DNA of 64,000 nt from an uncultured Methanosarcinales archaeon (lineage in GTDB: Archaea; Nanobdellota; Nanobdellia; Woesearchaeales; JAGVZT01). The stretch lies in NCBI GenBank assembly GCA_964354685.1, contig CAYHAM010000006.1, positions 9,523-73,522 on the forward strand, given 5' to 3'. The notes below the pieces were generated by a model, which searched no databases, had not been told where the DNA came from, and saw only the letters and a program-made list of their open reading frames with translations. Both the position numbers and the translations under genes were made by a program. Positions 23,270-60,742 of this stretch are shown one piece after another. Positions within the stretch are counted from its first letter, which is position 1. Each line of letters begins with the position of its first letter.

Positions 23270-24034
23270 TTAAGACAATTCAACATAAAAATAATAATCT
23301 GTATGTGTTGTAGCAGGGCTACCATTCTCTGCTATTAACATCTGGAAATCATAGGTTGAATTTGCAGCATCATTTTTATAGCCATCAACATTATTCTCTA
23401 TCTTAGTTGCATATACTAAATTAGCACTTCCATCATAGAGCAAAACCTCCTCAAACCATTCTGTGGAGCTTTGGGTACTATCATTAATCCAGGTTTGTAT
23501 TGAATAGTTACAGGTATCCTGTATTATCTGAGTAGGCCCAGAATAAAATCCCCAATGGTCATTTGCATCATCATCAAAAGTATCATTTATTGCATCTCCT
23601 GGTGTGTTAGTTAAATTGTGGTGCATCTCTGTCATTTCATCAGAAACATGAGTTGAGTTTGCGCACCTCACGCCGCTCCAATTAATCATGCTTGAAGTTC
23701 TAGTAGCATAAACCTCTCCAGCAATTGTTGATATGTTCCATTCATATATTGAATAGTTGCTTGCATCCTCCAAAACATATGAACCAGTAACATTTCCAAC
23801 ATAGGCCTTCCAATGGGAATCTGCTTGCCTAGCATTGAGGATCAATGTTGCAATCACCCCACCAGTTATGCTAATATTATTCTCTAAAGTTGGGTTACCA
23901 GACGCAACTGATGTCTCGTTTCTAACATAAGTGATTACTGGTCCTGAGGGTACTGCTGCCCACACAACTCCAATTAAAATCACGCTAATAATTATGCAGG
24001 TAAAAATTAAAAATGATATATCTCTTACTCTCAT
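23270..24034 (-). CDS. Secreted ~250-aa subunit-like protein, subtype A (A1)
   Basis: Signal peptide, AVPSGP, WKAYVGNVTG, LEDASNYSIYEW, YDFQMLIAENG, terminal YYFYVELS. Confidence 0.92.
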   Translation of the reverse strand: MRVRDISFLIFTCIIISVILIGVVWAAVPSGPVITYVRNETSVASGNPTLENNISITGGVIATLILNARQADSHWKAYVGNVTGSYVLEDASNYSIYEWNISTIAGEVYATRTSSMINWSGVRCANSTHVSDEMTEMHHNLTNTPGDAINDTFDDDANDHWGFYSGPTQIIQDTCNYSIQTWINDSTQSSTEWFEEVLLYDGSANLVYATKIENNVDGYKNDAANSTYDFQMLIAENGSPATTHTDYYFYVELS

Positions 24035-24077: not shown

Positions 24078-24830
24078 TCATGATATTTCAACATAAAAGT
24101 AATAGTTTGTTGCTGTTGAATCACCTTGGTGTCCGTCCTCTGCCACGAGCATTTGGAAATCATAATTCTCATTACCACTCTTGAACCCATCAGCACCGCC
24201 TTGCACAATCAATGCCACATAAATCAAAGAGCTATCACTCATGCTGTAAAGCAGTGTCTCATTAAAGTTCCTACTGGCATCTGGGGCATCATCCACATAC
24301 GTGCTTACAGTGAAATCACACTGATCTGCTAAGAAACCAGTGCTGCTCACATTAAATGCAGGATGTGTTGTCTCACCAAATGTCTCATTTATTCCATCCA
24401 CATCTTGGCCTATTCCTAAATTGAAGTCCAATGCACTCTCCTCACTTTCAACATGTGTTATGTTTGCACATATTACATTACCACTTGTCCAATTTATGCT
24501 ATTATTACGAGATGCATACACCTCGCCCTCAGGATCTGCAAGATCCCAGGTGTACATTGAATTGTTCAAAGCATCATCCAAAACAATTGTTCCACTAATA
24601 TTACCATAGTAACCTTGCCATCCTTGGGTTATTGTTGTTGTGTTTATACTCAGCTCTGAAACATTGCCAGCCTGGGCTTGTACACTTCTAGCAGCACCTG
24701 TTATTCTTCTTGAGGTGTTTAAAGTTGCCAAGCCCTCTGGTCCTGCTGGGTCATCTGCCAGTACACTTATAGCTAGCCAAGTTATCACTACCAAAAGCAA
24801 AACAACCCAAATCAGGTTCTTCGATCTCAT
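24078..24830 (-). CDS. Secreted ~250-aa subunit-like protein, subtype B (B1)
   Basis: The ORF track starts at TTG 24911; ATG 24830 (MRSKNLIWVVLL) gives a normal signal peptide. AGNVSEL, GWQGYYGNISG, EDGHQGD, terminal YYFYVEIS. Confidence 0.92.
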   Translation of the reverse strand: MRSKNLIWVVLLLVVITWLAISVLADDPAGPEGLATLNTSRRITGAARSVQAQAGNVSELSINTTTITQGWQGYYGNISGTIVLDDALNNSMYTWDLADPEGEVYASRNNSINWTSGNVICANITHVESEESALDFNLGIGQDVDGINETFGETTHPAFNVSSTGFLADQCDFTVSTYVDDAPDASRNFNETLLYSMSDSSLIYVALIVQGGADGFKSGNENYDFQMLVAEDGHQGDSTATNYYFYVEIS

Positions 24831-24907
24831 AATCTTGCTTCTCTCTCTTACAAACCTCCTTGCTCTAGGCTTTGGAGGCTTGAGTATAAAAAACAAAAAA
24901 TCAAGCC

Positions 24908-25669
24908 TCAACCTAGCTCAACATAAAAGTAATAGTTTGTTGTTGTTGTATCACCTTGGTGTCCGTCCTCTGCTACAATCATCTGGAAGTCATAGTTGTC
25001 TGTACCACTCTTGAACCCATCAGCACCACCTTGGTTGATTATTGCTGCATAAATCAAATCCGCATTACTACTGCTGTACAACAAAGTCTCGTTGAAGTCT
25101 CTTGTTCCATATGCGTCATTCACATACGTACTCACAGTGAAATTACATGTGTTAGCTGTAAAGCCAGTGCTACTCACATTAAACTCCGGATGACTATTCG
25201 TCTCATTGAACGTTTCATTAATTCCATCTACGTCTTGGCCTGTTCCTAAATTAAAGTTCAATGCTGTCTCTTCAGTTTCAATGTGTGTTATGTTTGCGCA
25301 GACTATGTTACCACTTGTCCAATTTACAGCGCTACTCTCCCTAGTTGCAAAAACCTCTCCATAAGGGTCTGCCCAGGTCCATGTATACATTGAGTTGTTC
25401 AATGCGTCATCTAGTACAATAGTTCCAGTAACATTACCGTAATAACCCTGCCATCCTTTTGTTACTGTTGTATGATTCATTGTCAACTCTGACACATTAC
25501 CAGCTTGAGCAGGTCTGCTCTGAGCTGTTGTACTAATTGTTCTCCTTGTTGAATTCAATGTTGCTATATCCTGTGGTCCAGTAGGATCGTCTGCAAGAAC
25601 AATGCCTGCTGTCAACAAAACAAACAGTGTCAACAATAGAACACCATAAATCCCCTCTCTCTTCATCAA
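24908..25669 (-). CDS. Secreted ~250-aa subunit-like protein, subtype B (B2)
   Basis: AGGAGGTGA ribosome-binding site; AGNVSEL, GWQGYYGNVTG, EDGHQGD, terminal YYFYVELG. Confidence 0.93.
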   Translation of the reverse strand: MMKREGIYGVLLLTLFVLLTAGIVLADDPTGPQDIATLNSTRRTISTTAQSRPAQAGNVSELTMNHTTVTKGWQGYYGNVTGTIVLDDALNNSMYTWTWADPYGEVFATRESSAVNWTSGNIVCANITHIETEETALNFNLGTGQDVDGINETFNETNSHPEFNVSSTGFTANTCNFTVSTYVNDAYGTRDFNETLLYSSSNADLIYAAIINQGGADGFKSGTDNYDFQMIVAEDGHQGDTTTTNYYFYVELG

Positions 25670-25774: not shown

Positions 25775-26377
25775 TTAATCACCTCTCCTTTGTTTTAACA
25801 ATAATTTTTCAGGATCATAAAGAACATTAAGCATTTCAACTTCTGATAATTTTGGAATATCATCTTCTGTTTTTACTATAAGCTTCAACTTCTTAAGAGA
25901 AAGACCCTCTTTCTTCACTTTAGAAGCAGAATCAAGCACACCCTTTTTTGTAAAAACAAAAAGACTGGAACCATCAGTTACAATAGCCTTTATTTGCTTG
26001 ATTTCTGGCTTTATCTTCAGATAAAACCTTCCAATCTCCTCATGCAAAGTTTTATCTTCAACAAACCACGTACGAAGAACAAACTTGTGATAATCGCTCA
26101 AACTCAACAACTTTTTGTCTGCAAAACCATCAGTGGTTGCTATTAGGTAACCGAAATCATCGCTTAATGAAAATATGACCCTAGGCTTTCCTCTTTCTCT
26201 TTGAGGTATCCTCTTTTTTTTAACAATCCCAGCAGCTTCTAGCAATCTAAGCTGCTGGCTTATGTTGGCTATGGAGGTGTTTAGTTTTTCTGCAAGCTGT
26301 AAAGGGCTCTGACTTTGCCTAGAAATCTCCTCTAGTATCATCCATTTTGAGGATGTGAACAATCCTTCAAGTTCCAT
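25775..26377 (-). CDS. ArsR-like winged-helix regulator with a degenerate nucleotidyltransferase-like C-terminal domain (200 aa)
   Basis: SPLQLAEKLNTSIANISQQLRLLEAAGIV...RGKPR. The C-terminus (IKAIVTDGSSLFVF...VLYDP) has no intact GS..DxD motif. Confidence 0.8.
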   Translation of the reverse strand: MELEGLFTSSKWMILEEISRQSQSPLQLAEKLNTSIANISQQLRLLEAAGIVKKKRIPQRERGKPRVIFSLSDDFGYLIATTDGFADKKLLSLSDYHKFVLRTWFVEDKTLHEEIGRFYLKIKPEIKQIKAIVTDGSSLFVFTKKGVLDSASKVKKEGLSLKKLKLIVKTEDDIPKLSEVEMLNVLYDPEKLLLKQRRGD

Positions 26378-26724: not shown

Positions 26725-27450
26725 TTAAACTAATTCCACATAGAAGTAATATGCTGTTGAAGAAACAGGCCCTTCCCAGCCTTTTTCAGGCACAAGCATC
26801 TGGAAGTCATAATAACCTATGTCAAAACCAAGGGTTGTGTTCTCAATTATTGTTGTGTATACAATATAAGTACCATCCCACAACAAGATCTCCTGGAAGT
26901 TCTCTGTTGTTGTTTGAGGAGTGTCATTGATATATGTTATTAAAGTATAATCACAAACATCTTCATTGAACTCAACAGAACCTGTCCAGAAACTCTGATG
27001 AGTTGTTCTTGTAAATGTGTTGCTAATACTATCATCAGCTGAACTTGTATGGTTCATTGCTGTTTCCTCTTGAGAAACATGACTTGAGTTTGCACAAACA
27101 ATGCTGTCCCAATTAATAGTAGTGCTGCTCCTTGTTACATAAACCTCTCCAGCAACTGTTGAGATGCTCCACTCATATATTGAATAGTTGCTCGCATCCT
27201 CTAAAACAAGCTTTCCAGTTACGTTTCCAACATACGCCTTCCAATGTGGGTTTTGAGTTGTTGCATTAAGTACAATAGTTGTTATTGTGCCCCCAGTTGT
27301 GTTCAAAATTGTAGCAGACCTTGATGTTCCATTCTCAATACCAGTGATATTTATCTGAGGTCCAGTTGGAACTGCAGCTAGGACAAATGAAGCAATACTA
27401 ACTAACAAAATCAAAACTAAAATCCCTTTCCAATTATTATTATTTTGCAT
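26725..27450 (-). CDS. Secreted ~240-aa subunit-like protein, subtype A (A2)
   Basis: The ORF track starts at 27501; ATG 27450 (MQNNNNWKGILVL) overlaps the upstream stop and gives a signal peptide. AVPTGP, WKAYVGNVTG, terminal YYFYVELV. Confidence 0.92.
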   Translation of the reverse strand: MQNNNNWKGILVLILLVSIASFVLAAVPTGPQINITGIENGTSRSATILNTTGGTITTIVLNATTQNPHWKAYVGNVTGKLVLEDASNYSIYEWSISTVAGEVYVTRSSTTINWDSIVCANSSHVSQEETAMNHTSSADDSISNTFTRTTHQSFWTGSVEFNEDVCDYTLITYINDTPQTTTENFQEILLWDGTYIVYTTIIENTTLGFDIGYYDFQMLVPEKGWEGPVSSTAYYFYVELV

Positions 27451-27955
27451 CTTTCCTCTTCTCATTTGCCCTATGGTAAGCAGTCCAGATTGTCCTATCA
27501 TCCCTATTCAGCAAGATAGCTATCTTGCTGAAACTCAAATTATGATCATCCTTCAAAAAGCACACAATTGTTTCAAGAACACTGATCTCTCGGACTCTTA
27601 AAAGTGAAACTGGGATTTGATATTCAGCACTTGCAATCAAGCTATGTGGAAAAGCCTTTGGCAGCTTCTGCCTTGATTTGTGATAAACAACACCAATTGT
27701 GCTCTTGCTCCTGTTTGTTAACCCAGAAATCTCATATATACTAAGCCCAAGGTTCTCCTTCAAATACTTGACAATCACCTCAAAACCACCAAGCCTTCTG
27801 ATACTTAAAACAGAAATAGGTATTAGATAATCCTCCTCTTTTCTCAACAAAAGCCTCTCAATATCCTTCTTAGAAACATCATACTCCTGCTTTAGGTACT
27901 CAAAGAACAAGGATACAAGCTGCTTCTCATCAATTGATGCTTTATCTTGGCCCAT
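27440..27955 (-). CDS. Tandem (duplicated) helix-turn-helix protein (171 aa)
   Basis: Internal repeat IPISVL...IVKYLKENLGLSIYEISGLTNRSKSTIGVVYHKS / IPVSLL...IVCFLKDDHNLSFSKIAILLNRDDRTIWTAYHRA, a sigma region 4-like HTH. Confidence 0.85.
   Translation of the reverse strand: MGQDKASIDEKQLVSLFFEYLKQEYDVSKKDIERLLLRKEEDYLIPISVLSIRRLGGFEVIVKYLKENLGLSIYEISGLTNRSKSTIGVVYHKSRQKLPKAFPHSLIASAEYQIPVSLLRVREISVLETIVCFLKDDHNLSFSKIAILLNRDDRTIWTAYHRANEKRKDAK
27507..27532. repeat. Perfect 26-bp palindrome inside the tandem-HTH gene
   Basis: TTCAGCAAGATAG|CTATCTTGCTGAA. Confidence 0.95.
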
Positions 27956-29926: not shown

Positions 29927-30901
29927 TTAAACAACAGCAGAGAATGTTACTGTTCCATTGCAGAATCCCCTGGCAGAGCCAATAGGAATTCTAAGCTTCC
30001 AATATGTTGTGTTTGTTGAATTCAAATTAGCACCATCACCATCATCAACTTTTTGCAGAATCTTGTAACTAGGTATACCTAATGGCAACTTTTCATCTGT
30101 TAAATTCCACATGGCAGTGTCAAAATCCTTAGCACTAGTAACATTATACCTAAGATTACTGATTGTTATATTGCCAATTGTACAATTCATAGACAAGTTA
30201 TCACCATCTACAACTCCATACCCGTCAAGAGATAGGTTGATGTGTACATTTCCCGTGTTTGTAACATTAACATTCTTTTCCCCTGCGTTTGTTGTTGTTT
30301 CCCCAGGCGTCATCTCCCCAAAATCAATCAAATTTGTGGAAAGATTCAAAGCAGCTAGTTGGGTTATTGTAGGAGGTGTAGCATCAATAGATGTGTTAGA
30401 AATATTACTAGAATCCCTAGCAGACACATTACAATTCCACGAGGCATTGTTAGCATAATACCAAACACTGAAATTGCATGAGATTGCTAAAGCAGATACA
30501 TTTATTGAAGAGTTTGAGCAGGTTGTGGAAAAATAATGATAGTTATTATCATTTGCTGAGCTTGAGTTATAACTTGTTGCATCATAAATAGTTGCATTTA
30601 CTGCAGTTATATCACCCAAACCATTTAAATCATTAATTGTAGCATTACATCTTAGCAATTCAGTTGTGCCTTCACTCAAACCAATACTAGCTTGATCCCC
30701 GTCATCATGCTCGTACAACACAACCTGAGTAATAGTTGGTCCAATATTAGTAACATTAACCCTTGACTCAATAGATGTATTGTCATAGTAAGCAGCATTA
30801 CTTGTATCACTTATTGATACTAATAGATAGATACCTAATATTGTAAATAAAAATATGCAAGACAATGCCAACAATTGCTCTTTTTTCATTGTAATTTTCA
30901 T
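29927..30901 (-). CDS. Secreted protein (324 aa), second subunit-like family: Ig domain plus SCPU/WxL-like terminal domain
   Basis: Signal peptide; IDFG...NVTNTGN...LSMNCTIGNI...YWKLRIP...GFCNGTVTFSAVV. Homologous to the C-terminal half of 9742-11625. Confidence 0.88.
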   Translation of the reverse strand: MKITMKKEQLLALSCIFLFTILGIYLLVSISDTSNAAYYDNTSIESRVNVTNIGPTITQVVLYEHDDGDQASIGLSEGTTELLRCNATINDLNGLGDITAVNATIYDATSYNSSSANDNNYHYFSTTCSNSSINVSALAISCNFSVWYYANNASWNCNVSARDSSNISNTSIDATPPTITQLAALNLSTNLIDFGEMTPGETTTNAGEKNVNVTNTGNVHINLSLDGYGVVDGDNLSMNCTIGNITISNLRYNVTSAKDFDTAMWNLTDEKLPLGIPSYKILQKVDDGDGANLNSTNTTYWKLRIPIGSARGFCNGTVTFSAVV

Positions 30902-30922: not shown

Positions 30923-31702
30923 TTACGATAACTCAACATAAAAGTAATAATCTGTTTGTAATGTAGCAGGGCTGCCATTCTCTGCTATCAGCATCTGAAA
31001 ATCATAGGTTGTATTTGCAGCATCATTTTTATAACCATCAATATTGTTTTCTATCTTAGTTACATATATTAAATTAGCACTCCCATCATAAAGCAAAACC
31101 TCGTCAAACCATTCTGTGGAGCTTTGGGCACTATCATTAATCCATGTGTTGATTGAATAATTACAGGTGTCAGTAATTATATGACTACTACCTGCCCAAA
31201 AATCCCAATGGTCATTTCCATCATCATCAAAAGTGTTATTCATTGGATCATCAGGAGTGTTTGTTGTGTTGTGGTGCATATCTGCCATTTCATCTGCAAT
31301 ATGTGTTGAGTTTGCACACACCACATTATCCCAACTAATGGTACTTGAAGTTCTAGTAGCATAAACCTCTCCACCAACTATTGACACACTCCACTCATAT
31401 ATTGAATAATTGCTTGCATCCTCCAAAACATATGCTCCAGTAACATTTCCAACATAAGCCTTGTAATGAGGGTTTGCCTGCCTTGCTGTGAGCCTCAATG
31501 TAATAATCCTACCTCCTTTACTATCATTGTTATCTTCCACTGTTGGAACACCTGATGCTGCTGATGTTTCATTGCTAACCCACTCCAAACTTGGTCCTGT
31601 CGGAACAGCAGCAAATACACTCTTTATCAAAGTCAATGTTACTAATACAGCAATGACTAATACCAATACCAATTCCACTTTTTCTCTACTTGTCCTTGTC
31701 AA
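30923..31702 (-). CDS. Secreted ~250-aa subunit-like protein, subtype A (A3)
   Basis: TTG start 6 nt after GGTGA; AVPTGP, YKAYVGNVTG, terminal YYFYVELS; 11 N-x-S/T sequons counted. Confidence 0.92.
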   Translation of the reverse strand: MTRTSREKVELVLVLVIAVLVTLTLIKSVFAAVPTGPSLEWVSNETSAASGVPTVEDNNDSKGGRIITLRLTARQANPHYKAYVGNVTGAYVLEDASNYSIYEWSVSIVGGEVYATRTSSTISWDNVVCANSTHIADEMADMHHNTTNTPDDPMNNTFDDDGNDHWDFWAGSSHIITDTCNYSINTWINDSAQSSTEWFDEVLLYDGSANLIYVTKIENNIDGYKNDAANTTYDFQMLIAENGSPATLQTDYYFYVELS

Positions 31703-31741: not shown

Positions 31742-32500
31742 TTACTCAATTTCAACCCAAAAGTAATAATCTACAGGGCTTGTGTCACCATCATGTCCAT
31801 CTTCTCCAACTAGCATCTGGAAGTCATAGTTGTCTGTGCCAGTCTTGAACCCATCAGAGCCACCTTGATGGATAAATGCCATGTAAATCATCCCATTGTC
31901 AGAGCTGCTCCAAAGCAAAGTTTCATTAAAATTCCTGCTCGCATCTACCGCATCATTCACATAAGTGCTCACAACGAAATCGCACTCATCAGCTGCAAAT
32001 GTGTTGTTTCCAACACTAAAGAAAGGATGAGTTGTAAGGTTGAATGTCTCATTGATACCATCTACATCTTGCCCTAAGTTGTTGAAGTTGAGTCTAGTTT
32101 CTTCTGTTTGAATCTCTGTTATATTTGTACAATGCACATTGGGATCAGTCCAATTCACACTATTGTTCCTAGTTGCGTAAATCTCACCCTCAGGATCAGC
32201 CAAGTCCCATGAATACATTGTGTTGTTGAGTGCATCATCTAATGTTATAGTACCACTAATATTACCATAGTAACCCTGCCAACCCCTGGTTACCACAGTG
32301 GCACTCATGTTTAGCTCACTCACATTACCAGCCTCTGCCTGTATATACCTTACACCAGCATAGGGTCTTCTAGATACATTTATTATAGTAAATTCCTGGT
32401 TTGGAGGCGTAGGCACGTTTTGATATCCTGCCAAAACAGAAACTGCTATTAAAGCAAATACCAATATTATTATTGTCCAGTTTGCAATTGTCTTCTTCAT
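31742..32500 (-). CDS. Secreted ~250-aa subunit-like protein, subtype B (B3)
   Basis: GAGGTGATC ribosome-binding site; GWQGYYGNISG, EDGHDGD, terminal YYFWVEIE. Confidence 0.93.
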   Translation of the reverse strand: MKKTIANWTIIILVFALIAVSVLAGYQNVPTPPNQEFTIINVSRRPYAGVRYIQAEAGNVSELNMSATVVTRGWQGYYGNISGTITLDDALNNTMYSWDLADPEGEIYATRNNSVNWTDPNVHCTNITEIQTEETRLNFNNLGQDVDGINETFNLTTHPFFSVGNNTFAADECDFVVSTYVNDAVDASRNFNETLLWSSSDNGMIYMAFIHQGGSDGFKTGTDNYDFQMLVGEDGHDGDTSPVDYYFWVEIE

Positions 32501-32797: not shown

Positions 32798-32853
32798 TTG
32801 CGTTCACCATAACCTTGCTTTTTCTTTGGCGTTGTAATAAACTATTATACAAA

Positions 32854-32919: not shown

Positions 32920-33054
32920 TAAAATAGGATTTTAAATAGGCAGATATTGTGATTAAGTAATTAATTAATTTAATAAGTAAATTAATATCTTGATTATTGA
33001 TATAACTAACTTTAACACAATAATATAAGTATTCAAAAGAGTAAAAACTGCTCC

Positions 33055-33813
33055 TTACTCAATCTCAACCCAAAAGTAATAATCTACAGGGCTTGTGTCA
33101 CCATCATGCCCATCCTCTGCCACGAGCATTTGGAAGTCATAATTGTCTGTTCCTGTTTTAAAACCATCAGAGCCACCTTGGTGGATAAATGCCATGTAAA
33201 TCATCCCATTATCAGAGCTGCTCCAAAGCAAAGTTTCATTAAAATTCCTGTTTGCGTCTACAGCATCATTTACATATGTACTAACAGTAAAGTTACATTC
33301 ACTTGCTGTGAAAGTATTGTTCCCAACACTGAAAGCAGGATGCGTTGTAAGACTAAATGTTTCATTTATACCATCCATATCTTGCCCCAAATTGTTAAAG
33401 TTGAGCCTAGTTTCTTCTGTTTGAATCTCTGTTATATTTGTACAATGAATATTAGGATCAGTCCAATTTACACTACTATTCCTAGTTGCGTAAATCTCAC
33501 CCTCAGGATCAGCCAAGTCCCATGAGTACATTGTATTGTTGAGTCCATCATCTAAAGTTATAGTACCACTAATATTACCATAATAACCCTGCCAACCCCT
33601 GGTTACCACAGTGGTACTAATATTTAACTCACTCACATTACCTGCTTCTGCTTGTATTGATCTTACACCCGCATAAGGTCTCCTAGAAACATTCAATATA
33701 CTAAACTCCTCGTTTGGGGGCGTAGGTACATTCTGGAATTCTGCTAGAACAGAAACTGCTGCTAGAGCCAAAACCAAAATTATAAGTACCCAGTTTGCAA
33801 TTGTCTTCTTCAT
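33055..33813 (-). CDS. Secreted ~250-aa subunit-like protein, subtype B (B4); recent duplicate of B3
   Basis: Same length (252 aa) as B3 and roughly 85-90% identical by eye; same ribosome-binding site. Confidence 0.93.
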   Translation of the reverse strand: MKKTIANWVLIILVLALAAVSVLAEFQNVPTPPNEEFSILNVSRRPYAGVRSIQAEAGNVSELNISTTVVTRGWQGYYGNISGTITLDDGLNNTMYSWDLADPEGEIYATRNSSVNWTDPNIHCTNITEIQTEETRLNFNNLGQDMDGINETFSLTTHPAFSVGNNTFTASECNFTVSTYVNDAVDANRNFNETLLWSSSDNGMIYMAFIHQGGSDGFKTGTDNYDFQMLVAEDGHDGDTSPVDYYFWVEIE

Positions 33814-52900: not shown

Positions 52901-55900
52901 TTGTAGGTTCTCATTAGAAACAAATTCTCCTTTCTTATCAAGAACTATGGAGATCAATTCAGCGCTTTCCCCCAGTCTATAGATTGGCTTTTTAGAATTT
53001 AAGGTAATTAAACCATTAGGATATCTGGAGTTTCCTACCTTCTTATTTGTTTGAACATCGTTAATTATAACATCTCCTACTATATCCTCTACTCTTTTCT
53101 CATATACTGGTTCTGTTATTGGAGAATAGGATTTTTGCATTGATATTGGATACTGATGAGGGTCTAATATTGCCTCAACATCCCCACATTCTCCTCCAAC
53201 ACAGCTAACCTGGGCTGTGAAACTAAAGAACTCATCCTTTTCAACAGAAATATCACCATCTGGATCAACAAGAGAAACCACTAAAGTACCCCAAGGAATA
53301 GTCCAGTTTGTATAGTCAATGTCTATGCTTGATTCATTATCCATACACAATGCATCAATTCTAAATTCACCTGAATCATTTATTTTAGTGGTTTTATTAA
53401 TAATCCACCAATCACTATTATTTGTAAAAGTTGTATTTGTATAAAATAAGTTAGAGTCAGGAATATTTGTCAAATTAACTGTTACATTTACAACCGTGAA
53501 ATAATCGCTAGTACAATTTACTCTTATTGCAGTGAGGCTGTCATTGAATGACAAACCTGAACATGCACCCCATGAGCCATTATTAATTTGGCATTGTATC
53601 TCATTAATCTCTGGTGGCTTTGTTGCAACAATCGTTACATTAGATGAATTTACTTGAGAACCATGGCCATCATTATCAAATGGAATTACACCACACCACC
53701 ATGTTTCTCCTAGAGATGTATTTTCACTGCTTAAAATTGAATAAGTTTGAACTCCATTTGAAACATTCATTAACTGAGAATATATTAAAACACTACTATT
53801 ATACCAGCTTATATTGGCTGAAAGTGTATCAAAATAATTTGCATCAATTATAGTAAAATTACAATAGAGATCTTCTTCTGGTAAAGGATACAAAGGAGTT
53901 AATAATATATATGAAACATTTGGCAGAACATTTTGAATTATGGTTATATTAATTCTGCTAGTAGTTGCTGAAGAAACATAGCTTGAATAATTCTCAGCAT
54001 CATAGGTTACAAAAAACTCCCATGGAATTCCAGTAAGACCAGTGGCATTAACTTGCCAAGTTGTATTACAACTTGAACCACTCTTCATATTTGCTAGACA
54101 GGAATTGTTTTGATAAAACATAGGGTTTGCTGTAACTGTGTAAAAAGGATCTCCTGAATTCATTGGTATTATACCCTTGTTTTGAGGAATTTCCTGTTCC
54201 AATTCTACTGTTGGTTGTGGGTAAACATACTTTCTGATTTCTATTGTTCTTACTCTGTGTTCGTTTGTGCTTCCTCCTGTTCTTCCTCCTAAAAAGAAAT
54301 AGTTACCTGCTGTACTCTGCGGACTTGAATCTGTCCCATTCACTCTTAAAACCCCATCATAATAGATCAATGCATTCGCTCTAGTACCATTATTGTAAAA
54401 ATATACTGAAAGATTGTGCCATTGTGAATCATCCAATGCAGCAACAGGGTTCCACTCAGCAATAGAAGGACCATTATCAGTAGTACTTTTTGTAAATGCT
54501 ACTCTTTCATCTGGATCTGTCCATTCATCAACAGTAAAGTGATAACCATCATTTACAATATCTTCTCTGCCTGAACTTACAGATGTATCGTGTACACCTA
54601 TCCATGTAGAATCAGCTCCTGTTCCACCGCCTGCCCAGGTTTCATATCTACCGTAAAAACCAGGTCCTGGATTTTTTAGCCAGTATAGATAACCCAACTG
54701 ATCATTAGCAACAGGAGTAAGCCTTACCCCTACTGTTGAATCTACATACGCTGCAGAACCAGTAAGGCTCCCGCTTGGAGGACCTGACATATCCTCGTAT
54801 AAAAACAGTGTTTCTGTTCCATTGCTCTGGCTTTGTGCTGTAGAATTACCATAATAAACATAAATTGAGGCATTGCCATAGGCGCTGAGTGAGTACTCCA
54901 CCCATATTAAAGTTGAACTTGTATTGCAACCATATTCAACCCAATAATCCAATTCATTATTTGAACTGTCCACGAATCTTACATCTCCACAGTCACTCCT
55001 CATTTTACCAGCAGAAATAAGAGATTGCGTATTCAAGGTTACATTGAATTGATAATCTGTAAGTATATTGTTTGATTTCTCTGTAAGATTAATCTTTCTT
55101 CTGTAATCCCAGGATGTGTTCCACCAATTCTCAGGGTCAAGTGTTGCACTTACATATCCACACTCTCCCCCAGTACAATTTACTCTTGCCGTAAAATTAA
55201 AGAATTTGTTCTGAGTAACGTTTATATCTTCGTTAGGGTTAATTAATTCTACGACCAAACTTCCCCAAGGAACTGTCCAATTGGATGATCCTGAACCGGA
55301 AGTGCTGGAGTTATCATAACATGTTACTGAGAGGTTAAATGTTCCTGAGTCAGTTATTGTAATGTCAGTATTATTGAAAACAAAATAACCTGTTGAATTA
55401 TCATTGGTATAGTTATTGAAAAAAGTATATGAATCCTCAACATTGATTAATGTAAACGTCGCATTTACAACATAACCATCAGGATCTGTGCAATCAGCCC
55501 TTACTGCTTTTAAACTGTCTCCATATAAAATATTCTCACATTGAGTCCAGGTTGAGCCATCTTCATAACACCAAATCTGGTTGACCACAGGAGGTTGGGA
55601 TGCCAGAATTTGAATAGCAGAAGAGTTAACCTGTGTTCCATATTCTATTTGATCATATGGTGTAACACCACAATGCCAGTACTCACCACTGGAAGTGTTT
55701 CCTGAATTTAAGATAGCATTAGTTTTAACTCCACTAGTTACACTAACAACTTCTGAATAAGATAAAGCACTTCCCTTATACCAACTTACATTAGCGGTTA
55801 ATGTATCCAGAGCACTGGAATCTGATACTGTAAATGTACAATTTAAATCATCACTTGGACTTGGTAGTAATGGATCTATTGAAACTGAATCAACTGTTGG

Positions 55901-58900
55901 TGCAATGTTGTTGATTATTGTAATGTTTACTGCAGATGTATTAACAGCGCTAACATTTGCAGAGTAATTCATCGATGCATATGTAACAAAGAACTCCCAA
56001 GTTGTATTAGCACTACCTGTCGCGTTGACTTGCCAGGTTGTATCACAATTGTTACCATCTGTCATATTAGCTAAACAATATCTATAAGAAGAGTTCATAG
56101 GATTATCAGAAGTTGTGTAGAATGGAGTTCCAGAATTCAAAGGGACTACTCCTTTACCAGAATTATTTTCTTCACTTCCTAAAGTATAACTCGGAGCACT
56201 ACTCATTGCTTTATATACTCTTAAATCATCGTATTCTGCTTTTGGAGTTCCTGTATTTGTGTTTGAAGCAGTTAATCCATAATAACCTGAATTTCTTGAA
56301 CCACCTGAAGCCACATTTGCATAATTCCATGAACTTGGCTCAGCAGTTATTGCTAACCAAACTTTATTCCAAGTATTTTGCCCTATGATCATAAATTTAT
56401 GATAATACCAAGTGTTTTGATTCCACGCATAACTTCCTTCCTGGAACCAAGAAACCCCATCATTTAACAAATCTAATTCTCCTGAAGCCCCGTCATTATT
56501 ATGTAATAATGAACAATAACCTCTTCCTGCTCCTCCTGAACCATCCATTCTTAAAGAAGGGCCGAACCTATAAGCATCGCCATCAGTCCATTGAGTAATT
56601 TGCATTTTAACAACAATAACACCATTAGTAAAAGAAGGACTTGAACCTAAATAATCTATTAATAATTTATTTGGGTCTCCAGAACCTCCTGAAGCAACTA
56701 ACTTATTATTAGTTATGTTCCATGTAGCTCCGCCAACACTACTATAATTAGCCTCTGTTGTAATATCTGGTTTGTCGGTTCTATTAAAATCATCCCAATA
56801 CATATAGACTAAATTATAATCATAAGTAGGAGTACTTGCACCAGAATTTCCATAATATAAAAAAACAGTATCTTTTTTCTGAGAAGCGCTTAAATCTGTT
56901 TTAAAATGAATTATTGTATTTGCAGTGTTATTTGTGTTAGGTTCAATATGATAAGCAATCTCAGTACCATTTTCTATTATTCTTAAATCACTCATATCAG
57001 CATTCATCTTACCTGCAGAGACCAAAGTCTGAGTATCAATAGAAACATTGGTTGTCCAATTACTAACTGCACTTCCAGAATTTTCTGTTATATTAATTTG
57101 CATCCTATAATCCCAATTTGAATTCCACCAGTTTGTAGGGTCAAGTGTCGCATTTACATCCCCGCACTCTCCACCACTACAAGTAACTCTTGCTGTGAAA
57201 TTAAAGAAACGATTTCTAGTAACATTAACATGAGTAGAAGGACTAATCAATTGAGCAGACAAATTACCATAAGGAATGCTCCAATTGATATCCTCTTCCA
57301 TTACAGGATTTTCCCTGCAAGTGATATGCAAGTTAAACAATCCAGAATCATATATTGTCATATCTGAAACATCATACTCCCAATACTCACTACTGTAATT
57401 AACCCTTAACCAAATAGCATCTATGCTTGCAACCTCATCATCAGGCAAACCAACTTGCATGCCCTCAACTCCTAAGTATATGTTGCTCAAATCACTCCAG
57501 CTAAGACTACCAGTGATCTGGTAATAATCATTTCTCAAACTACCACTCTGGTTTGCAACACTAGCACCATTATAAGCAGTTCCATCAAGATTCTTCCATG
57601 TTGTGCCACCATCTAGACTATATTTTAATGTTAGCTCATCATTACCTATAGCTGGATTAGAAAAGTTTGATCTTAGTGCTAAATAAACCTTGTTGATAGT
57701 ACCAGCCTCTGGTAACCCAACAAAATTATGAGTATATAACTCATTCCCATTATCAGTTTCGTCCCATGCAACTGCACTATCTGGCTGATTATCAGCCTCT
57801 TCAGGGCTATTTGCCCAATCACCACCATAAGAGTTTGCATACAGATTCAATTCTGAACCAGATTCATTTGTTAATGTAGCATTAAAGTACACTTTGTTAT
57901 CATCAACATTCTTAAGCATAAAAGAAACATTGCTTATTGACCCGCCAGAATTAGAAGTACAGTTTGTTCTCACACTATCAAGCGTATCCCCAAATGCAAT
58001 AGTTGTGCAATTAACCCATCCAACACCAGCTTTATAACAACTTGTGTTGCTGATTGTTGGTAGAACCTCAACAGTGATATTTGTGTGGGTGTTGTTATTA
58101 CCAATATTACCTATTGTGTCATTTGCAAAAGCCCTCACCTGATAAGAATTACCACTACTTAACCCAACCATGTTCCATGTGCATTCATACATTGGACCAG
58201 AATTGTCACTACATATAAACCCCCATGATGCAGTTGAATTTTTCCTATAATAGAAAGAAACAGTGTCTACATTGGATAATGCATCAGTAGCACTTGCATT
58301 TACAGTATAAGTGGCTGTTGAAATATTTGTGAAGTTCTGGGGTCTGTCAAGAGTGGTTGTTGGCCCTGTTCTATCAATTGTAATAGTATAATTGGTAGAA
58401 TACCAATCATCATTAGGAACAGTTGCATTATCCCAGCACCTTATGTTCCAAATATATTTGCCATCTGATGGATTGACTGTAATGTTTGTATTTGTGTTAT
58501 TTGTCACATTAAAAGCAGTACCCTGAATTGTCCAACCAGATATATTCATGTAAAGGCTGCAGTTCTGTATTGTATGATCATCCGTGGCTGTGAAGTTGAA
58601 ATTAACTGATGTTGAAGTGATATTTGCCCCATTAGATGGATAATTTAAAGATGTTACATTTGGTGCACTATCCCAACTACAACCACACAATGTGCAGTTA
58701 GTCTGGCCACTATGGCTTCCACAACTGCTTGGTGTTCCAGAACATTGATATACTCGTTTTATTATCAAAACCCCATCAACATGGCCATAATCACCAGCCT
58801 CAATATCGTCATTATCCCACTCAATTCTAAAACCATTATAGAAATACTGGGAATCTGTAATTGTATCTGTGTAATGCCCCCATGTGCCACCATCATTTAA

Positions 58901-60742
58901 TGTGCTTTGTTCATTCCAACTACTGCTACTATTAAGATAATCAATAGTAAATTCACTGTCACTGTTAACAGACTCATAATAATAGAAATCAATATAAATC
59001 GCATCTGCATCTGAGTAATCTCCAGTAGGCGTCATCAGCCAAGTGTTAATTCCACCACCAGAACCATCAAACCTTGCTGACCAACTTCCATTAGAGGCCC
59101 TTGCATTTGACCTGCTCCATTGAGTGTCATCTATCTCCCAATTGGTTGGAGGGAATGTGGCACCTTCAAATGACTCATTAACCATAGTTGTGTTAACAAG
59201 AACCCATGCACACCCACACGCCAAACAATCATTTTGATTATTGTGATTACTACAGTTGCTTGGAGTCCCTCCACAAAGACCAGCTTCATTATATGCATAC
59301 TTAGTATCATTCCCAAACTTGAATTCCAACGTATGTTTACCACATGTCAAAACCTTGCTTATTTCATACCCTGTTTCATCACAGCTGTAGTTAGAAATGA
59401 ACACACTGTTATTTATCCATTCATATTCCAAAACATTGTTTCCACATCTTGTTTCCAAAAACTTTAAGTCATTATCCTCATTCACATTGCTCCAAGTTGT
59501 GCCATTAAAAACAGTTATTGTCAAATCAGCCATGCCTGTTGTGTTAAACCTAACCTCCCAGTTGCCACCAACAGTAGGATAGCTCTGAACATCAATTATT
59601 GTGATATCTGTCTCAGCATAACCAGGATCATCGGGTGTTAATACAAACGAATACTCTTGCCCTGGCACAATATCCATCAACTTCTCCCATGTGCCTTCAC
59701 AAATCTGTTCTTCAAAGTTCCAATCCTTACACTTGTATAATTCATTACCCTCTGCAACTGCTGTAACAACTGCTCTTGAGAAATTTAGCTCAGTTGGATC
59801 TATTGCATAAATCCTTTGCACACCTTTACCTCTAAGTTCCGGAATATCTTTTTGGACCTCATCTATCTTCAGATTAATCCCTTCCTCTTCAATCAACAAC
59901 CCATCAAAACTTATACTCTTAACAATATTACTCTCAAAACCTAACTCAACATTTACAAAACCACCAACATCTTCAATAGAATTGATATTGTAATCAATGA
60001 ACTCTCCATCTCTTTTTATTAACTTCAAAGCTTGCTTTAGCTCTTCTGAAACATTAATCTGAGGTTCAACTGGTTCCTCTTTAAAAACAACCCAGAAAAT
60101 CTTTTCTATTACACTGTTGTCTTCAAGTGTTATCACAACCTTATACTCACCCACCTGCTTTGGTATGAAAACAATCTTCTCATTAAACTCCCCAAGGTAA
60201 TGTAAACTATTGTTCCCAAACCATATCACAAGACTTGAAACATTAACATTCAGCCTAATATACACCCCTTCTCCTAAATTGTAACTGATCTTATCTATGC
60301 TTATTACATCATTCGATAGATTATCACTCTCATCTAATTCAATCTCAACCTCTTGCTCACCTCCTTCATCACTGGCTATGTCAACAACATAAAAATTAGA
60401 GGCTGTTATTGTTCCATCCTCTTTATCAAGCAGCTTAACTGTATAATTACCAGGAACCTTTGGCTTAAACACAGTAACAGTTCTAACATTCCCCGCGTAC
60501 CTATAAACTTGATCTCCATGAATTATGAAAAGCTCTTTGCCTTCAATTGGTCCCAAAACATGTATGAAAACATCTTCACCAGTAGAATAGTATATCTTTT
60601 CAATAGACAATTTTTCTTGATTTGATTCAGATGCAATCCCACTTATTGAAGCATAACCGATTATTATAATACCTAAGATTAATATGATTAATAAAATCTC
60701 CAAGTTCTTATTCATGCCTTTAATACTCATCTCTTTTTTCAT
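43946..60742 (-). CDS. Giant secreted adhesin-like glycoprotein (5598 aa): N-terminal AIDP...DPGYAE and VQSYP.VGGNW domains, MAM-like domain, two DUF2341 plus ConA/L-lectin-like units, MG2-like domain, ~22 Ig repeats, two CARDB domains, C-terminal subunit-like domain
   Basis: ORF track. WWN..WDYR DUF2341-type starts; RLTP...QLG / GGGTGAD lectin-like motif; ends GNITG...YDFEIRVP...FYVEIK; no C-terminal TM helix. Confidence 0.93.
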   Translation of the reverse strand: MKKEMSIKGMNKNLEILLIILILGIIIIGYASISGIASESNQEKLSIEKIYYSTGEDVFIHVLGPIEGKELFIIHGDQVYRYAGNVRTVTVFKPKVPGNYTVKLLDKEDGTITASNFYVVDIASDEGGEQEVEIELDESDNLSNDVISIDKISYNLGEGVYIRLNVNVSSLVIWFGNNSLHYLGEFNEKIVFIPKQVGEYKVVITLEDNSVIEKIFWVVFKEEPVEPQINVSEELKQALKLIKRDGEFIDYNINSIEDVGGFVNVELGFESNIVKSISFDGLLIEEEGINLKIDEVQKDIPELRGKGVQRIYAIDPTELNFSRAVVTAVAEGNELYKCKDWNFEEQICEGTWEKLMDIVPGQEYSFVLTPDDPGYAETDITIIDVQSYPTVGGNWEVRFNTTGMADLTITVFNGTTWSNVNEDNDLKFLETRCGNNVLEYEWINNSVFISNYSCDETGYEISKVLTCGKHTLEFKFGNDTKYAYNEAGLCGGTPSNCSNHNNQNDCLACGCAWVLVNTTMVNESFEGATFPPTNWEIDDTQWSRSNARASNGSWSARFDGSGGGINTWLMTPTGDYSDADAIYIDFYYYESVNSDSEFTIDYLNSSSSWNEQSTLNDGGTWGHYTDTITDSQYFYNGFRIEWDNDDIEAGDYGHVDGVLIIKRVYQCSGTPSSCGSHSGQTNCTLCGCSWDSAPNVTSLNYPSNGANITSTSVNFNFTATDDHTIQNCSLYMNISGWTIQGTAFNVTNNTNTNITVNPSDGKYIWNIRCWDNATVPNDDWYSTNYTITIDRTGPTTTLDRPQNFTNISTATYTVNASATDALSNVDTVSFYYRKNSTASWGFICSDNSGPMYECTWNMVGLSSGNSYQVRAFANDTIGNIGNNNTHTNITVEVLPTISNTSCYKAGVGWVNCTTIAFGDTLDSVRTNCTSNSGGSISNVSFMLKNVDDNKVYFNATLTNESGSELNLYANSYGGDWANSPEEADNQPDSAVAWDETDNGNELYTHNFVGLPEAGTINKVYLALRSNFSNPAIGNDELTLKYSLDGGTTWKNLDGTAYNGASVANQSGSLRNDYYQITGSLSWSDLSNIYLGVEGMQVGLPDDEVASIDAIWLRVNYSSEYWEYDVSDMTIYDSGLFNLHITCRENPVMEEDINWSIPYGNLSAQLISPSTHVNVTRNRFFNFTARVTCSGGECGDVNATLDPTNWWNSNWDYRMQINITENSGSAVSNWTTNVSIDTQTLVSAGKMNADMSDLRIIENGTEIAYHIEPNTNNTANTIIHFKTDLSASQKKDTVFLYYGNSGASTPTYDYNLVYMYWDDFNRTDKPDITTEANYSSVGGATWNITNNKLVASGGSGDPNKLLIDYLGSSPSFTNGVIVVKMQITQWTDGDAYRFGPSLRMDGSGGAGRGYCSLLHNNDGASGELDLLNDGVSWFQEGSYAWNQNTWYYHKFMIIGQNTWNKVWLAITAEPSSWNYANVASGGSRNSGYYGLTASNTNTGTPKAEYDDLRVYKAMSSAPSYTLGSEENNSGKGVVPLNSGTPFYTTSDNPMNSSYRYCLANMTDGNNCDTTWQVNATGSANTTWEFFVTYASMNYSANVSAVNTSAVNITIINNIAPTVDSVSIDPLLPSPSDDLNCTFTVSDSSALDTLTANVSWYKGSALSYSEVVSVTSGVKTNAILNSGNTSSGEYWHCGVTPYDQIEYGTQVNSSAIQILASQPPVVNQIWCYEDGSTWTQCENILYGDSLKAVRADCTDPDGYVVNATFTLINVEDSYTFFNNYTNDNSTGYFVFNNTDITITDSGTFNLSVTCYDNSSTSGSGSSNWTVPWGSLVVELINPNEDINVTQNKFFNFTARVNCTGGECGYVSATLDPENWWNTSWDYRRKINLTEKSNNILTDYQFNVTLNTQSLISAGKMRSDCGDVRFVDSSNNELDYWVEYGCNTSSTLIWVEYSLSAYGNASIYVYYGNSTAQSQSNGTETLFLYEDMSGPPSGSLTGSAAYVDSTVGVRLTPVANDQLGYLYWLKNPGPGFYGRYETWAGGGTGADSTWIGVHDTSVSSGREDIVNDGYHFTVDEWTDPDERVAFTKSTTDNGPSIAEWNPVAALDDSQWHNLSVYFYNNGTRANALIYYDGVLRVNGTDSSPQSTAGNYFFLGGRTGGSTNEHRVRTIEIRKYVYPQPTVELEQEIPQNKGIIPMNSGDPFYTVTANPMFYQNNSCLANMKSGSSCNTTWQVNATGLTGIPWEFFVTYDAENYSSYVSSATTSRINITIIQNVLPNVSYILLTPLYPLPEEDLYCNFTIIDANYFDTLSANISWYNSSVLIYSQLMNVSNGVQTYSILSSENTSLGETWWCGVIPFDNDGHGSQVNSSNVTIVATKPPEINEIQCQINNGSWGACSGLSFNDSLTAIRVNCTSDYFTVVNVTVNLTNIPDSNLFYTNTTFTNNSDWWIINKTTKINDSGEFRIDALCMDNESSIDIDYTNWTIPWGTLVVSLVDPDGDISVEKDEFFSFTAQVSCVGGECGDVEAILDPHQYPISMQKSYSPITEPVYEKRVEDIVGDVIINDVQTNKKVGNSRYPNGLITLNSKKPIYRLGESAELISIVLDKKGEFVSNENLQLTITKPDGTKERVYSSQFKELRPGLYEFVYGPLQIEGVYGLEITTINSSVKDVLYTLFEVKEDYVFDIIRETPIAIDPWESDFESTIHINSLEGTNQYSFVETIPSEWEIIEANNAYVWYSDKETQIIWSDLRGNSTVSYQAKIPKISPNRYKLESYILHDGQFFEEARPWLVAVDPLNYYSAYTDSLSTYSDGTYTQADAGDYSDTLVADCTGGTCTSSNSWETGFQNLTNAEPYDCELNATLSFNVSDLNPEYLKNVTITWGGCWHGDEVLTSNNCDNGDNPEFDDGTGGGSFDMWILGPDGYEKLDCVSTVGSECGAGSEINLGTDASAPGWGDADDYNTFRYRKTINSSYADDNIITIKWRVFGTSVCGDTDADDDIIMIIDYANLTVGWEYLIKSGMVSTINGTEPFYTIDSNPQNKSDDSCLGGMVDGRSCQITWDVNATGGIGTTHEFYVIFNSTQYPIYVGHNETDHIYITIEDTSSVPPVVTLVSPNNNSATNNPSVVFNCSATDNNGLFNMTLYANFNGTFRANGTNNIGGTSNSTTFTRTLQEGIYIWNCLAYDDDDNYDWGNTNRTLTVDTTKPSINLAAPDENSTFYVGTILFNFTVFDNLDSVLICNITIDSTVEDANFSSNNASLTSRPIGSLEQGNHSWNVACVDNAGNFNTSKTINFSIIDLPPNVTLVTPDNYSQNSTSIDLQYNATDNNDVTKADLYINSVWNDSSSEVGNGEISTFTVGNLVEGRYNWTVNVTDISNLTVQATERWFFIDFTKPSIVLYAPEDNHSTNQSTIYFNFTVTDNLDADKILVCNITINGGVYDENFNANNGSLTSRPINNIPDGVSYWNITCVDDAGNWNTSETRSINVSSPPSVELNSPEDNHSQSLGDITLYYTPTDNTGFNNCDLILDNEINQTNSSINNGYQNNFTLIGLNPGFYNWTVNCTDLSGLSTLASPVRRFVIDSTEPTITLHSPLPNASVFGPLIKFNFTVTDDVSNLLYCNLTLDGEVNESNIPAINGSVINQTITINLDGVYWWNLTCWDDAYNTNTSETRNFTIYNPPYIALVSPDNGTILDYRENVNFTYIPVDADGLGNASLIINNVKTENDTSLENGEKNSFLFNFSEDGLYYWTINATDIYELEGTGSPQRQLIIDTTSPNITIITPYNNETVTWNNVTFSFSVTDNLDDELICNITVVDSVEWENVSVSNGSTVTRYSELYDGNYNWSVTCIDHANNTNSYILINFTVEAPPNVTLNFPIDNYRTTSQDMTFNYTPYDYFGFNNCSLYINGVFNNSDSSIERNEPNYFDLTNISDGYYNWSVECIDEAPDLNPYTAPYENFTIDTLGPSIVLNYPGEGQAINYNNITFNWTPTDAPGINITCNLTIDSAVNVTNITNTSGTNFLVEVNGLADGAHNWSVSCVDDLGNSNTSFTGNFTINQPDLFINNSMISFNNSNPDLNENITIFANVSNIGGIDASNVLVEFWDGLPGSGTFIGNNTKDVGYNATVTFNISWIITAGYHTIWVVVDPDDNIAELNESNNNATTNISVLISTINSPQNDSWQDNETVEINFTLQDFTNGSINYSIFVDGILNGQNGSASDNVSKLLNVTLSEGVHYIIVQATDNLSRSKNSTSLKVNIDLSNPSPIFETANQTWFNDTTPEILFNITDNLDDILNYTLYVNGSHEANGSVNNGTTTSINLSSKTDGVYELVLEASDEAGHVVNSTPIIIYIDTTKPSINLTYPPQGVNTTSTTIELNFSVSDNLDSELICNLTLNGDVYRQNIVAYVDTEINTTISGLNETTYYWNVTCVDNATNWNISETRSFNVYLAPVVELIVPAHDTWNNSENITFYFNVSDDTGIENCSLIFNGQINDTRNSSEITNNAVNNFTVYDIKSGYYNWSVNCTDNTSLYVEGNSTTWLLKVDRIKPFINLTLPVNGYNSSSLTLDLNFSVIDNMDDEMRCNLTVNGSVYRENFAAANNSEINTTYTATGEGTYYWNVTCWDNASNINTSETRSFNVVIPPIVILDSPPDNSWSNAENQTFYFNVSDDTGINNCSLILNGLVNVTKNSSEVTNNAKNNFTVYNIKSNLYNWSVECYDDFNTRGNSTTWRLNLDRILPSINLTWPQESYNSTSFTLDLNFTVIDNMDDELRCNLTVNGSVYRENFVADNNTEIKTTYTGSVEGSYYWNVSCWDNASNINTSETRTFNLAVPPNVTLVNPPNGSWSNAENQTFYFIVNDTTGIRNCSLILNGVINDTKNSSEIINNAMNNFSVVNIATKFYNWSVNCTDVFGAEGNSSTWLLRVDKINPSINLVYPSNGLNYTNTIIDLNFTVTDNMDNEMRCNLTLNNGVIRENFAANNGSEINTTVSWLNETTYYWNVSCWDNATNINTSETKHFFVYIAPNITLVSPADNNWTNVENQTFYFNVSDDTGIENCSLLLDGQINDTKNNTEIINNAMNNFTVYYLNGSYSWAVECYDNTSQHMYTITSNRTLYVDIIAPYPYIETANGTWFNTTTPTIYFNITDNLDQVLNYTFYVDGVKNVNGTATNGSTNSTNLVGVGEGSHEIILEAFDNVNNIRNSTPITIYVDITKPSINLTYPEEGHNSSSTSVELNFTVIDNLDDNLTCNLTIDGSVYRANFSALNNTEVSTIATDQGPGWHYWNVTCWDNAGNWNTSETRSYFIEVPDLTLNNSDIVFNQTSFSEGQNVTINATIYNIGNGDAANITVQFFEGYPGSDNQINGNKTINSLPLGTNATVNTTYIVKMGSTNIYVVVDPPLATNGSIVEANESNNLAYNIIIVGSYEIVIGNITGLLQLYDTTNMSLFDWNVSNYTNSNIYVVDSDSIVKWDSLQAVSRDTINGLQMDDFDEADTAMNMTQNPDSINTTWTENGGVRLSMGWVAYGNTINNVAIVNSTNTSNFVTGILWDYNDPNNGEYNGTQDVVFITKVNENKTGMYGVYDFEIRVPAMLRGYIQPNTQNSVTFYVEIK

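Follow-up and report, generated by a model that had tools for sequence, protein, structure and literature searches.

The stretch of DNA considered here, in the following referred to as the window, comprises 64,000 nucleotides (nt) of contig CAYHAM010000006.1 from an uncultured Woesearchaeales archaeon and possesses a GC content of 35%. All genes relevant to this work locate to its minus strand, where seven small secreted proteins of one family are encoded together with two giant secreted proteins that end in a copy of the same domain. When read in the direction of transcription, the cluster begins with the giants G2 and G1, followed by two small subunits of subfamily B, one small subunit of subfamily A and a third component, F; after two unrelated plus-strand genes it continues with S, A, H, B, B, A, L and M. 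Downstream of M more conserved membrane proteins are encoded, up to a protein of 632 amino acids (aa) at 9742-11640, after which a third giant leaves the window. The conserved cluster thus reaches past the range 23270-60742 that had been singled out in an earlier note on this DNA, namely to about position 9742. The locus is best explained as a system for assembly and display at the cell surface, of a kind typical for Woesearchaeota-type DPANN archaea. The cluster probably builds a cell-surface attachment structure, whereby a fibre, a coat or a discrete complex are all possible geometries.

The small proteins, which the earlier note had described as seven secreted paralogs of ~250 aa sharing one sequence pattern, were all recovered as open reading frames (ORFs) on the minus strand. 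Their alignment contains 49 invariant columns, including W/Y.GN, GE, two Cys, YDFQM and YYF.VE, and each of the seven is recognised by the family hidden Markov model (HMM) with E-values of 1e-94 to 1e-101. Two old subfamilies were identified, whereby subfamily A comprises the proteins encoded at 23270..24034 (254 aa), 26725..27501 (258 aa) and 30923..31702 (259 aa), and subfamily B those at 24078..24911 (probable start 24830, yielding 250 aa and matching the public gene call P0001), 24908..25669 (253 aa), 31742..32500 (252 aa) and 33055..33813 (252 aa). The B gene at 31742-32500 is a recent duplicate of that at 33055-33813 and lies in the same frame as the adjoining A gene at 30923-31702, the joining stretch holding two stop codons. 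An 89-nt repeat (91% identical) was found at 32844-32932 and 34155-34243, ~340-430 nt upstream of the two near-identical B genes and in intergenic regions of unusual length (~530 nt). The unit of duplication measures 1311-1313 nt, and the repeat may constitute a shared promoter or regulatory element.

Each small protein starts with a Sec-type signal peptide possessing an A-x-A-like site, which is followed by the conserved mature start A|xPxGP, an N-terminal extension of ~46 aa (here also called the arm) and the core, as exemplified by the protein encoded at 33055..33813, which was used for structure prediction. The extension carries short segments with alternating hydrophobic residues (e.g., FSILNVS and VITYVRN), and the family possesses a conserved polar motif (D.IN.TF..H, D202, E209) as well as a disulfide. 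N-X-S/T sequons are present in 10-13 copies per subunit, several of them conserved family-wide, and the GN(V/I)(S/T) motif that had been highlighted earlier is itself a conserved glycosylation sequon. The sequon density amounts to 4-6 per 100 aa in the secreted proteins of the locus versus 0-1 in cytoplasmic neighbours. With regard to signal peptides, sequons (from which glycosylation is predicted) and a beta-rich model, the small proteins hence agree with the Sec-dependent, N-glycosylated, beta-rich subunits known from archaeal filaments.

The small-subunit family is undescribed, as had been proposed. Searches of the small proteins, F and M against Pfam, NCBIfam and the sequences of the PDB yielded nothing meaningful, and a Pfam scan of all 119 family members revealed no consistent weak family. 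The 985 relatives identified in a large protein database are all annotated as hypothetical, none with a Pfam domain, and those among them with a named source are labelled Woesearchaeota, Nanoarchaeota or DPANN. An exhaustive profile search resulted in 1360 clusters at 50% identity, while a sensitivity-limited pattern scan of GTDB, covering one genome per species (185,579 species genomes), resulted in 408 confirmed matches, almost all of which belong to metagenome-assembled genomes of Woesearchaeota, Nanoarchaeota or Pacearchaeota. According to a survey of DPANN protein families, the majority of those specific to a lineage carry no annotation and are predicted to reside in the membrane or outside the cell (PMC8204110); the family at hand is not described there, and literature searches identified no description of it either.

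The giants are G2 (43946..60742, 5598 aa), with matches to Big_13, Big_7, CARDB, two copies of DUF2341 and MG2-like domains, and G1 (34341..43949, 3202 aa), with matches to MG2-like, Big_7 and Big_3_3 domains; the two share their N-terminal ~400 aa and their C-terminal ~420 aa. The proposal that both giants end, over their last ~185 aa, in a homologue of the small-protein core was borne out by profile-profile alignment, the very comparison that had been named as a possible refuter: with window sequences only, hhalign returned 97.4% (E 1.2e-11), and with deeper alignments 98.7% (E 2.7e-16, 165 columns). Moreover, all seven small proteins are retrieved by an HMM that is based solely on the two giant ends. 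The homology spans mature residues 47-228 only, meaning that the ~46-aa N-terminal extension is without counterpart in the giants. It is indeed a CARDB domain that takes its place: in both giants the Pfam CARDB match (PF07705; 35.2 and 37.5 bits versus a gathering cut-off of 22.7) ends few residues before the core, with CARDB located at about 44534-44857 and the core at 43949-44510 in G2, and at about 34914-35255 and 34344-34895, respectively, in G1. Likewise, neither giant possesses a C-terminal hydrophobic segment, in line with the claimed lack of a C-terminal membrane anchor. The giants hence show the layout of a tip adhesin, i.e., an adhesive part followed by a subunit domain without extension. 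The giant-type domain lacks both Cys and the D.IN.TF..H motif. As to the label "lectin-bearing" that had been given to the giants, two DUF2341 matches in the larger giant G2 speak for it, a domain which we take to have a concanavalin-like fold; nothing else stands behind the label.

The same rule was found to hold beyond the window. Among ~35 large ORFs of related loci (470 to more than 3250 aa, many of them cut at the locus edge) the giant-type domain is always located at the extreme C-terminus, and complete large proteins possess Sec-type cleavable signal peptides with AxA sites and no transmembrane (TM) anchor; for G1 itself, an obvious AxA site was not found at the N-terminal hydrophobic segment. 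Standalone proteins of 305-352 aa, consisting of CARDB and core, occur as well. The position of the domain is strict, with the stop located exactly one residue past the final strand in 216 of 231 small proteins and in 27 of 28 giant-type proteins, and tandem-domain fusions are absent from all 290 domain-bearing ORFs. The only exceptions to the end-domain rule are two proteins of ~1200 aa (L037 1336-4869 and L043 2227-5841), which show a weak family match (E about 1e-5) near the N-terminus.

The ORFs of 80 related loci (plus three duplicate copies), which had been retrieved by similarity to the B-type subunit, were labelled using local HMMs and phmmer, and gene order was counted over 81 non-duplicate sources. 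These loci derive from Woesearchaeota and Nanoarchaeota and possess a recurrent order, so that the conserved neighbourhood for which an HMM-based check in DPANN genomes had been proposed does exist. Two arrangements summarise it, i.e., G B A F and (S A) H B (B) A F M x233 x620 x993. In total, 126 B, 116 A, 59 F and 31 G genes were counted, with A and B thus being present at about 1:1. The succession B-A was counted 67 times and A-B 6 times, with A-F reaching 45, H-B 36 and S-A 23 counts. For 27 of 30 large proteins ending in the domain (G), a B gene lies at most three genes downstream. Helix-turn-helix (HTH) regulators and membrane proteins accompany the cassettes in the related loci.

Mature B (33055-33813) was modelled with AlphaFold2 from an alignment of 119 sequences. 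The resulting model is confident (predicted local distance difference test, pLDDT, 92.3; predicted template modelling score, pTM, 0.86), with some twelve strands and two short helices in residues 50-228. No regular secondary structure is present in residues 1-49, which are still modelled confidently (pLDDT 82-87), with residue 7 taking part in a beta-bridge. The incomplete beta-sandwich expected from the earlier interpretation was not recovered: the monomer model is compact and confident with an ordered extension, and no positive sign of an incomplete fold was identified. Similarity to known donor-strand pilins, expected likewise, was not found either. Foldseek searches of the B model against the PDB and BFVD returned no match at E<=0.001, with TM-scores (template modelling scores) of at most 0.18; the best PDB match has an E-value of 0.57, and the Sulfolobus thread 7pnb_A appears at rank 19 with E 4.8 and a TM-score of 0.11, which is noise level. 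Neither a chaperone-usher pilin nor TasA, AbpA or CanA is among the Foldseek matches listed, and the PDB sequence search with the small family was empty. By these tests, the predicted fold of the B domain resembles nothing known and the protein belongs to no known pilin family; the small subunit hence has an apparently new fold.

Direct-coupling analysis of 338 sequences (effective number of sequences 286) revealed couplings between the first arm residues and the C-terminal strand (5P-219V and 1V-222E), between arm residues 26-35 and residues 43-50, and between the C-terminal strand and strand 78-83. The arm couplings, together with the agreeing single beta-bridge of the model, suggest that the arm lies along the C-terminal edge strand. 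This edge is also present in the giants, which possess no arm of their own. The arm-edge geometry, as predicted, would be the one needed for subunits to exchange arms and for a giant to take up the arm of a subunit. The couplings are compatible with an arm bound in cis or in trans, and for the standalone subunit the evidence leans towards an arm bound in cis.

Considering this, we suggest that the shared domain is a new homotypic assembly or tethering module, which fixes anchorless secreted adhesins to a structure made of A and B and perhaps F, a reading to which we assign a probability of roughly 0.45. Anchorless large secreted proteins are regularly encoded beside small proteins with the same terminal domain, for which an assembly or tethering module is the simplest reading. 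A function of the domain in joining the large adhesins to the structure formed by the small proteins fits with the giant core being devoid of the extension, with the signal peptides, with the missing anchor and with the adjacency of G and B genes. The key element would be the beta-rich, presumably N-glycosylated domain of ~185 aa, which occurs in two forms, namely as standalone A and B subunits that carry the ~46-aa arm, and as the last domain of large multi-immunoglobulin (Ig)/CARDB/DUF2341 proteins, in which CARDB replaces the arm. In the suggested mechanism, A and B would associate into an extracellular glycoprotein structure that may be held at the membrane by F and/or M, and the large proteins, upon cleavage of their signal peptide, would become tethered to this structure via their terminal copy of the domain. 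The likeliest contact would be made by the N-terminal arm of one subunit lying along the C-terminal edge strand of its neighbour, an edge that is expected to be free in the giants.

Several points weigh against the assembly-module reading. In at least 15 other large proteins, representatives of 468-2359 aa, the terminal domain is of B type and has kept the whole arm internally (P0260, P0322, P0334, P0335, P0338, P0339, P0344, P0350-P0352, P0358, P0362, P0364, P0382 and P0383; see also locus L083). The fusion junction follows the pattern '...DYASI..GPxxxNITVIxSERR', straight after a conserved upstream domain (CNITF..M.YN...Y.YNR.F..G...F.I.C...DYASI). An arm kept inside large proteins implies that it is part of the domain and not a dedicated free donor strand, and that the analogy to the chaperone-usher adhesin FimH holds for the CARDB-type giants only. 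One of these proteins, P0344, is encoded away from any B-A-F cassette and adjoins an integrase and a KaiC-like ATPase. Given a compact and confident monomer model with an ordered arm, the couplings between arm and core are most simply explained in cis. The gene-order frequencies carry an ascertainment bias resulting from the retrieval of the loci by similarity to a B-type subunit. Finally, the small proteins could be mere soluble or ligand-binding versions of the module of the giants.

The original interpretation assumed that the small proteins polymerise head-to-tail by donor-strand complementation into a glycosylated fibre, with the giants serving as tips that, like FimH and PapG, lack the donor strand. 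Its parts fared differently: the undescribed family and the giants ending in a core without extension were confirmed, while the pilin fold and the FimH analogy in its general form were not. In favour of such a fibre are the parallel to FimH in the order of an adhesive part and a subunit-like domain devoid of the N-terminal extension, the alternating-hydrophobic segments within the extension, the coupling of arm and C-terminal edge strand, and a gene order G-B-A-F that can be read as tip, shaft, adaptor and base. Archaeal precedent exists in the form of chaperone-free donor-strand fibres made of Sec-secreted glycoproteins, namely the thread (bioRxiv 10.1101/2022.04.26.489512), bundling pili and cannulae (PMC9245690; bioRxiv 10.1101/2024.12.30.630787). 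Set against this are the lack of structural similarity to donor-strand pilins, the empty PDB sequence search, the predicted completeness of the monomer including its extension, the 15 large proteins that hold the extension internally, and the lack of any tandem-domain fusion. In addition, Pfam and NCBIfam scans of the neighbouring genes identified no chaperone, usher, sortase or signal-peptidase-like gene in the locus. We therefore regard this fibre as rather unlikely. A variant in which A and B alternate in a fibre of new fold, built by arm exchange onto the C-terminal edge, with F or M as base and an adhesin of 0.1-0.6 MDa as host-capturing tip, is regarded as doubtful to a similar degree; that host capture would be plausible for a DPANN symbiont is something we purely infer. 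Type IV pilins and archaellins, whose class III signal peptide leaves the hydrophobic N-terminal helix in place, were ruled out by the type of signal peptide, as the hydrophobic segment precedes the mature start A|xPxGP, and the locus contains no PilB/PilC-type genes for an ATPase or a platform protein and none for a prepilin peptidase.

A polymer is not required if the domain is a ligand-binding module, either lectin-like or binding to the host envelope, that resides at the far end of a stalk formed by giants held by their N-terminus. The small proteins would then be secreted or loosely attached binders, and the presence of many paralogs with regulators of their own would suit alternative specificities. 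The N-terminal hydrophobic segment of G1, being without obvious AxA site, might serve as signal anchor, and the conserved polar motif together with the disulfide might form a binding site. However, the giant-type domain has neither this motif, the most conserved polar one, nor the Cys pair, which renders a shared ligand site unlikely, and other complete G-type proteins possess clear cleavable signal peptides. Furthermore, the fixed B-A-F order and the 1:1 ratio of A and B across distant genomes fit a heteromer better than fast-evolving binders, and the strict position of the C-terminus points to packing, so that the ligand-binding explanation is judged unlikely. Less likely again would be a two-dimensional coat, i.e., an S-layer-like lattice or sheath of A and B, anchored by F or M, into which the large proteins are integrated via the same domain. 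The subunits are small, secreted and, judged from their sequons, heavily glycosylated, they come as two obligate subfamilies with membrane-anchored partners encoded in the locus, and an exchangeable N-terminal arm is a common lattice device. Yet several cassettes per genome, each with its own regulator, are unusual for an S-layer gene, and the 408 confirmed matches among 185,579 species genomes in the sensitivity-limited pattern scan may likewise speak against a coat. A further point against it is a Woesearchaeota metatranscriptome, whose top-expressed genes include separately annotated S-layer genes (PMC11606122), an annotation that the small family does not carry. A viral or capsid protein was ruled out, as the BFVD search gave no match and the locus has a conserved, chromosomal context.

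The partner proteins constitute the remainder of the locus. F (29927..30901, minus strand, 324 aa, 23 sequons) represents a second unannotated family. In its model (pLDDT 93.1) a hydrophobic helix at the N-terminus is connected by a flexible linker to two Ig-like beta-sandwich domains, for which structural matches are restricted to generic tandem-Ig proteins (integrin, Fab, SdrG/SdrD and RbmA); F thus appears to be adhesin- or scaffold-like. As a relative of the small family F was ruled out (hhalign 9%). The F domain is of dual occurrence as well, being found standalone (~325 aa) or as the last domain of Ig-repeat proteins of 590-855 aa, which were identified in the window (9742-11640, minus strand) and in loci L001, L011, L028, L036, L057 and L076. 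M (20840..22579, minus strand, 579 aa), conserved in 29 of 82 related loci, combines a signal peptide and a large ectodomain with a TM helix at the C-terminus and a zinc ribbon on the cytoplasmic side, and is a candidate for the membrane anchor. By eye, its ectodomain apparently contains three alpha/beta repeats recalling cell-wall-binding repeat 2 (CWB2), undetected by Pfam, which are followed by CARDB-like sandwiches, the TM helix and the zinc ribbon. L (22904..23245, minus strand) is a secreted, possibly lipoprotein-like protein of 113 aa that follows the last A gene in some related loci. S (27440..27955, minus strand), a sigma-70 region-4-like HTH protein, and H (25775..26377, minus strand), an ArsR/MarR/HVO_A0114-like winged-helix regulator, recur directly upstream of an A and a B gene, respectively.

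Further downstream on the minus strand the conserved membrane proteins x233 (18932-19633), x189 (18363-18932) and x620 (16514-18376) are encoded, of which the latter two share an N-terminal ectodomain of ~110 aa (IPP.AAEFYG...) and are kept beside x233 in 12-16 related loci. In addition, x620 possesses an Ig domain (He_PIG/Big_9), a region rich in Cys (25 Cys, CGDGVCD..E.C.CP.DC), three TM segments and, on the cytoplasmic side, a coiled coil. They are followed by x993 (11627-14608, minus strand), with Ig-like domains, a TM helix and a coiled coil, and by Fbig (9742-11640, minus strand, 632 aa), with Ig-like repeats and a terminal F domain, both of which recur in related loci. The third giant, G3 (1-9726, minus strand), is an ORF of at least 3242 aa that leaves the window at its start, with the C-terminus located outside. 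It shows a cytoplasmic N-terminus of ~147 aa, a single TM helix close to residue 150 and an ectodomain that matches NPCBM_assoc, DUF4625 and MG2-like domains; being without similarity to G1 or G2 and of type II membrane topology, it was ruled out as a third member of their family. The plus-strand gene at 19791-20489 encodes x232, a Lys/Glu-rich and apparently cytoplasmic coiled-coil protein which is recurrent in related loci, where its gene immediately follows that of a G protein in 8 instances and immediately precedes a B gene in 6. At 28183-29690 of the plus strand, within the cluster, a glycosyltransferase of the GT4 type and a small protein with 3-4 TM segments are encoded; homologs of the former were found in 2 of 82 related loci and of the latter in none, so that an apparent lineage-specific insertion is assumed. 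By eye only, three tandem paralogs of 51-55 aa (14605-15085, minus strand) resemble ribbon-helix-helix proteins of the CopG/Arc type, and a 124-aa protein (15666-16040, plus strand) resembles desulfoferrodoxin or superoxide reductase. Scans of the window for tRNAs and Rfam families gave no matches. No RNA run containing sequence of the window or of locus L055 was found, the sole match being a soil DNA run with 8% of words.

When compared to known systems, the locus resembles several of them in its logic and, by fold, sequence and machinery, is a member of none. With chaperone-usher pili (FimH, PapG) it shares small paralogous secreted subunits with an N-terminal extension and large adhesive proteins ending in a subunit copy devoid of it. 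In contrast to these pili, similarity of fold and sequence is missing, neither chaperone nor usher is present, the archaeon possesses a single membrane, the monomer is predicted to be complete and other large proteins keep the extension internally. The Sulfolobus thread (Saci_0406), the TasA-like bundling pili of Pyrobaculum (AbpA) and the Pyrodictium cannulae (CanA) have in common with the small proteins a Sec-type signal peptide, small, beta-rich and (here predicted to be) heavily N-glycosylated subunits, paralogous minor subunits nearby and a locus devoid of recognisable assembly machinery. They differ by the lack of any detectable homology or fold match (see 7pnb_A, E 4.8 and TM-score 0.11) and by the features found here, namely two obligate subfamilies, a two-Ig partner and a domain shared with large proteins. 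The cell-wall proteins of Clostridioides difficile have CWB2 modules in common with its S-layer protein. The use of one module in abundant small and in many large adhesin-like surface proteins is thus common to the present system, to CWB2 repeats and to S-layer homology (SLH) domains, and such sharing would explain how proteins are retained without a membrane anchor; the fold is unrelated, however, and the domain described here occurs in a single copy that invariably closes the protein at its C-terminus. The SPEARE proteins of Nanohaloarchaeum antarcticus are likewise very large, secreted, multi-domain proteins of a symbiont lineage that are thought to mediate host contact, but here a conserved operon combines the giants with several small paralogs, to which their terminal domain connects them.

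Much of the diversity of archaea is accounted for by Woesearchaeota and their relatives. To our knowledge, none of them has been cultivated and the manner of their host contact is unknown. For these archaea the locus represents a concrete, widely conserved and unannotated candidate attachment apparatus, offering a predicted fold without match in the PDB or BFVD, a fixed B-A-F cassette and the rule that large anchorless secreted adhesins end in the same domain, and an HMM marker derived from it could serve to detect the system, together with its giant cargo, in metagenomes. If a strand-exchange fibre were formed, the principle would have arisen independently once more, in addition to chaperone-usher pili, type V pili, TasA/AbpA filaments, threads and cannulae; and if A and B indeed formed a fibre with giant tips, the locus would encode the host-capture apparatus of a major uncultivated symbiont lineage.

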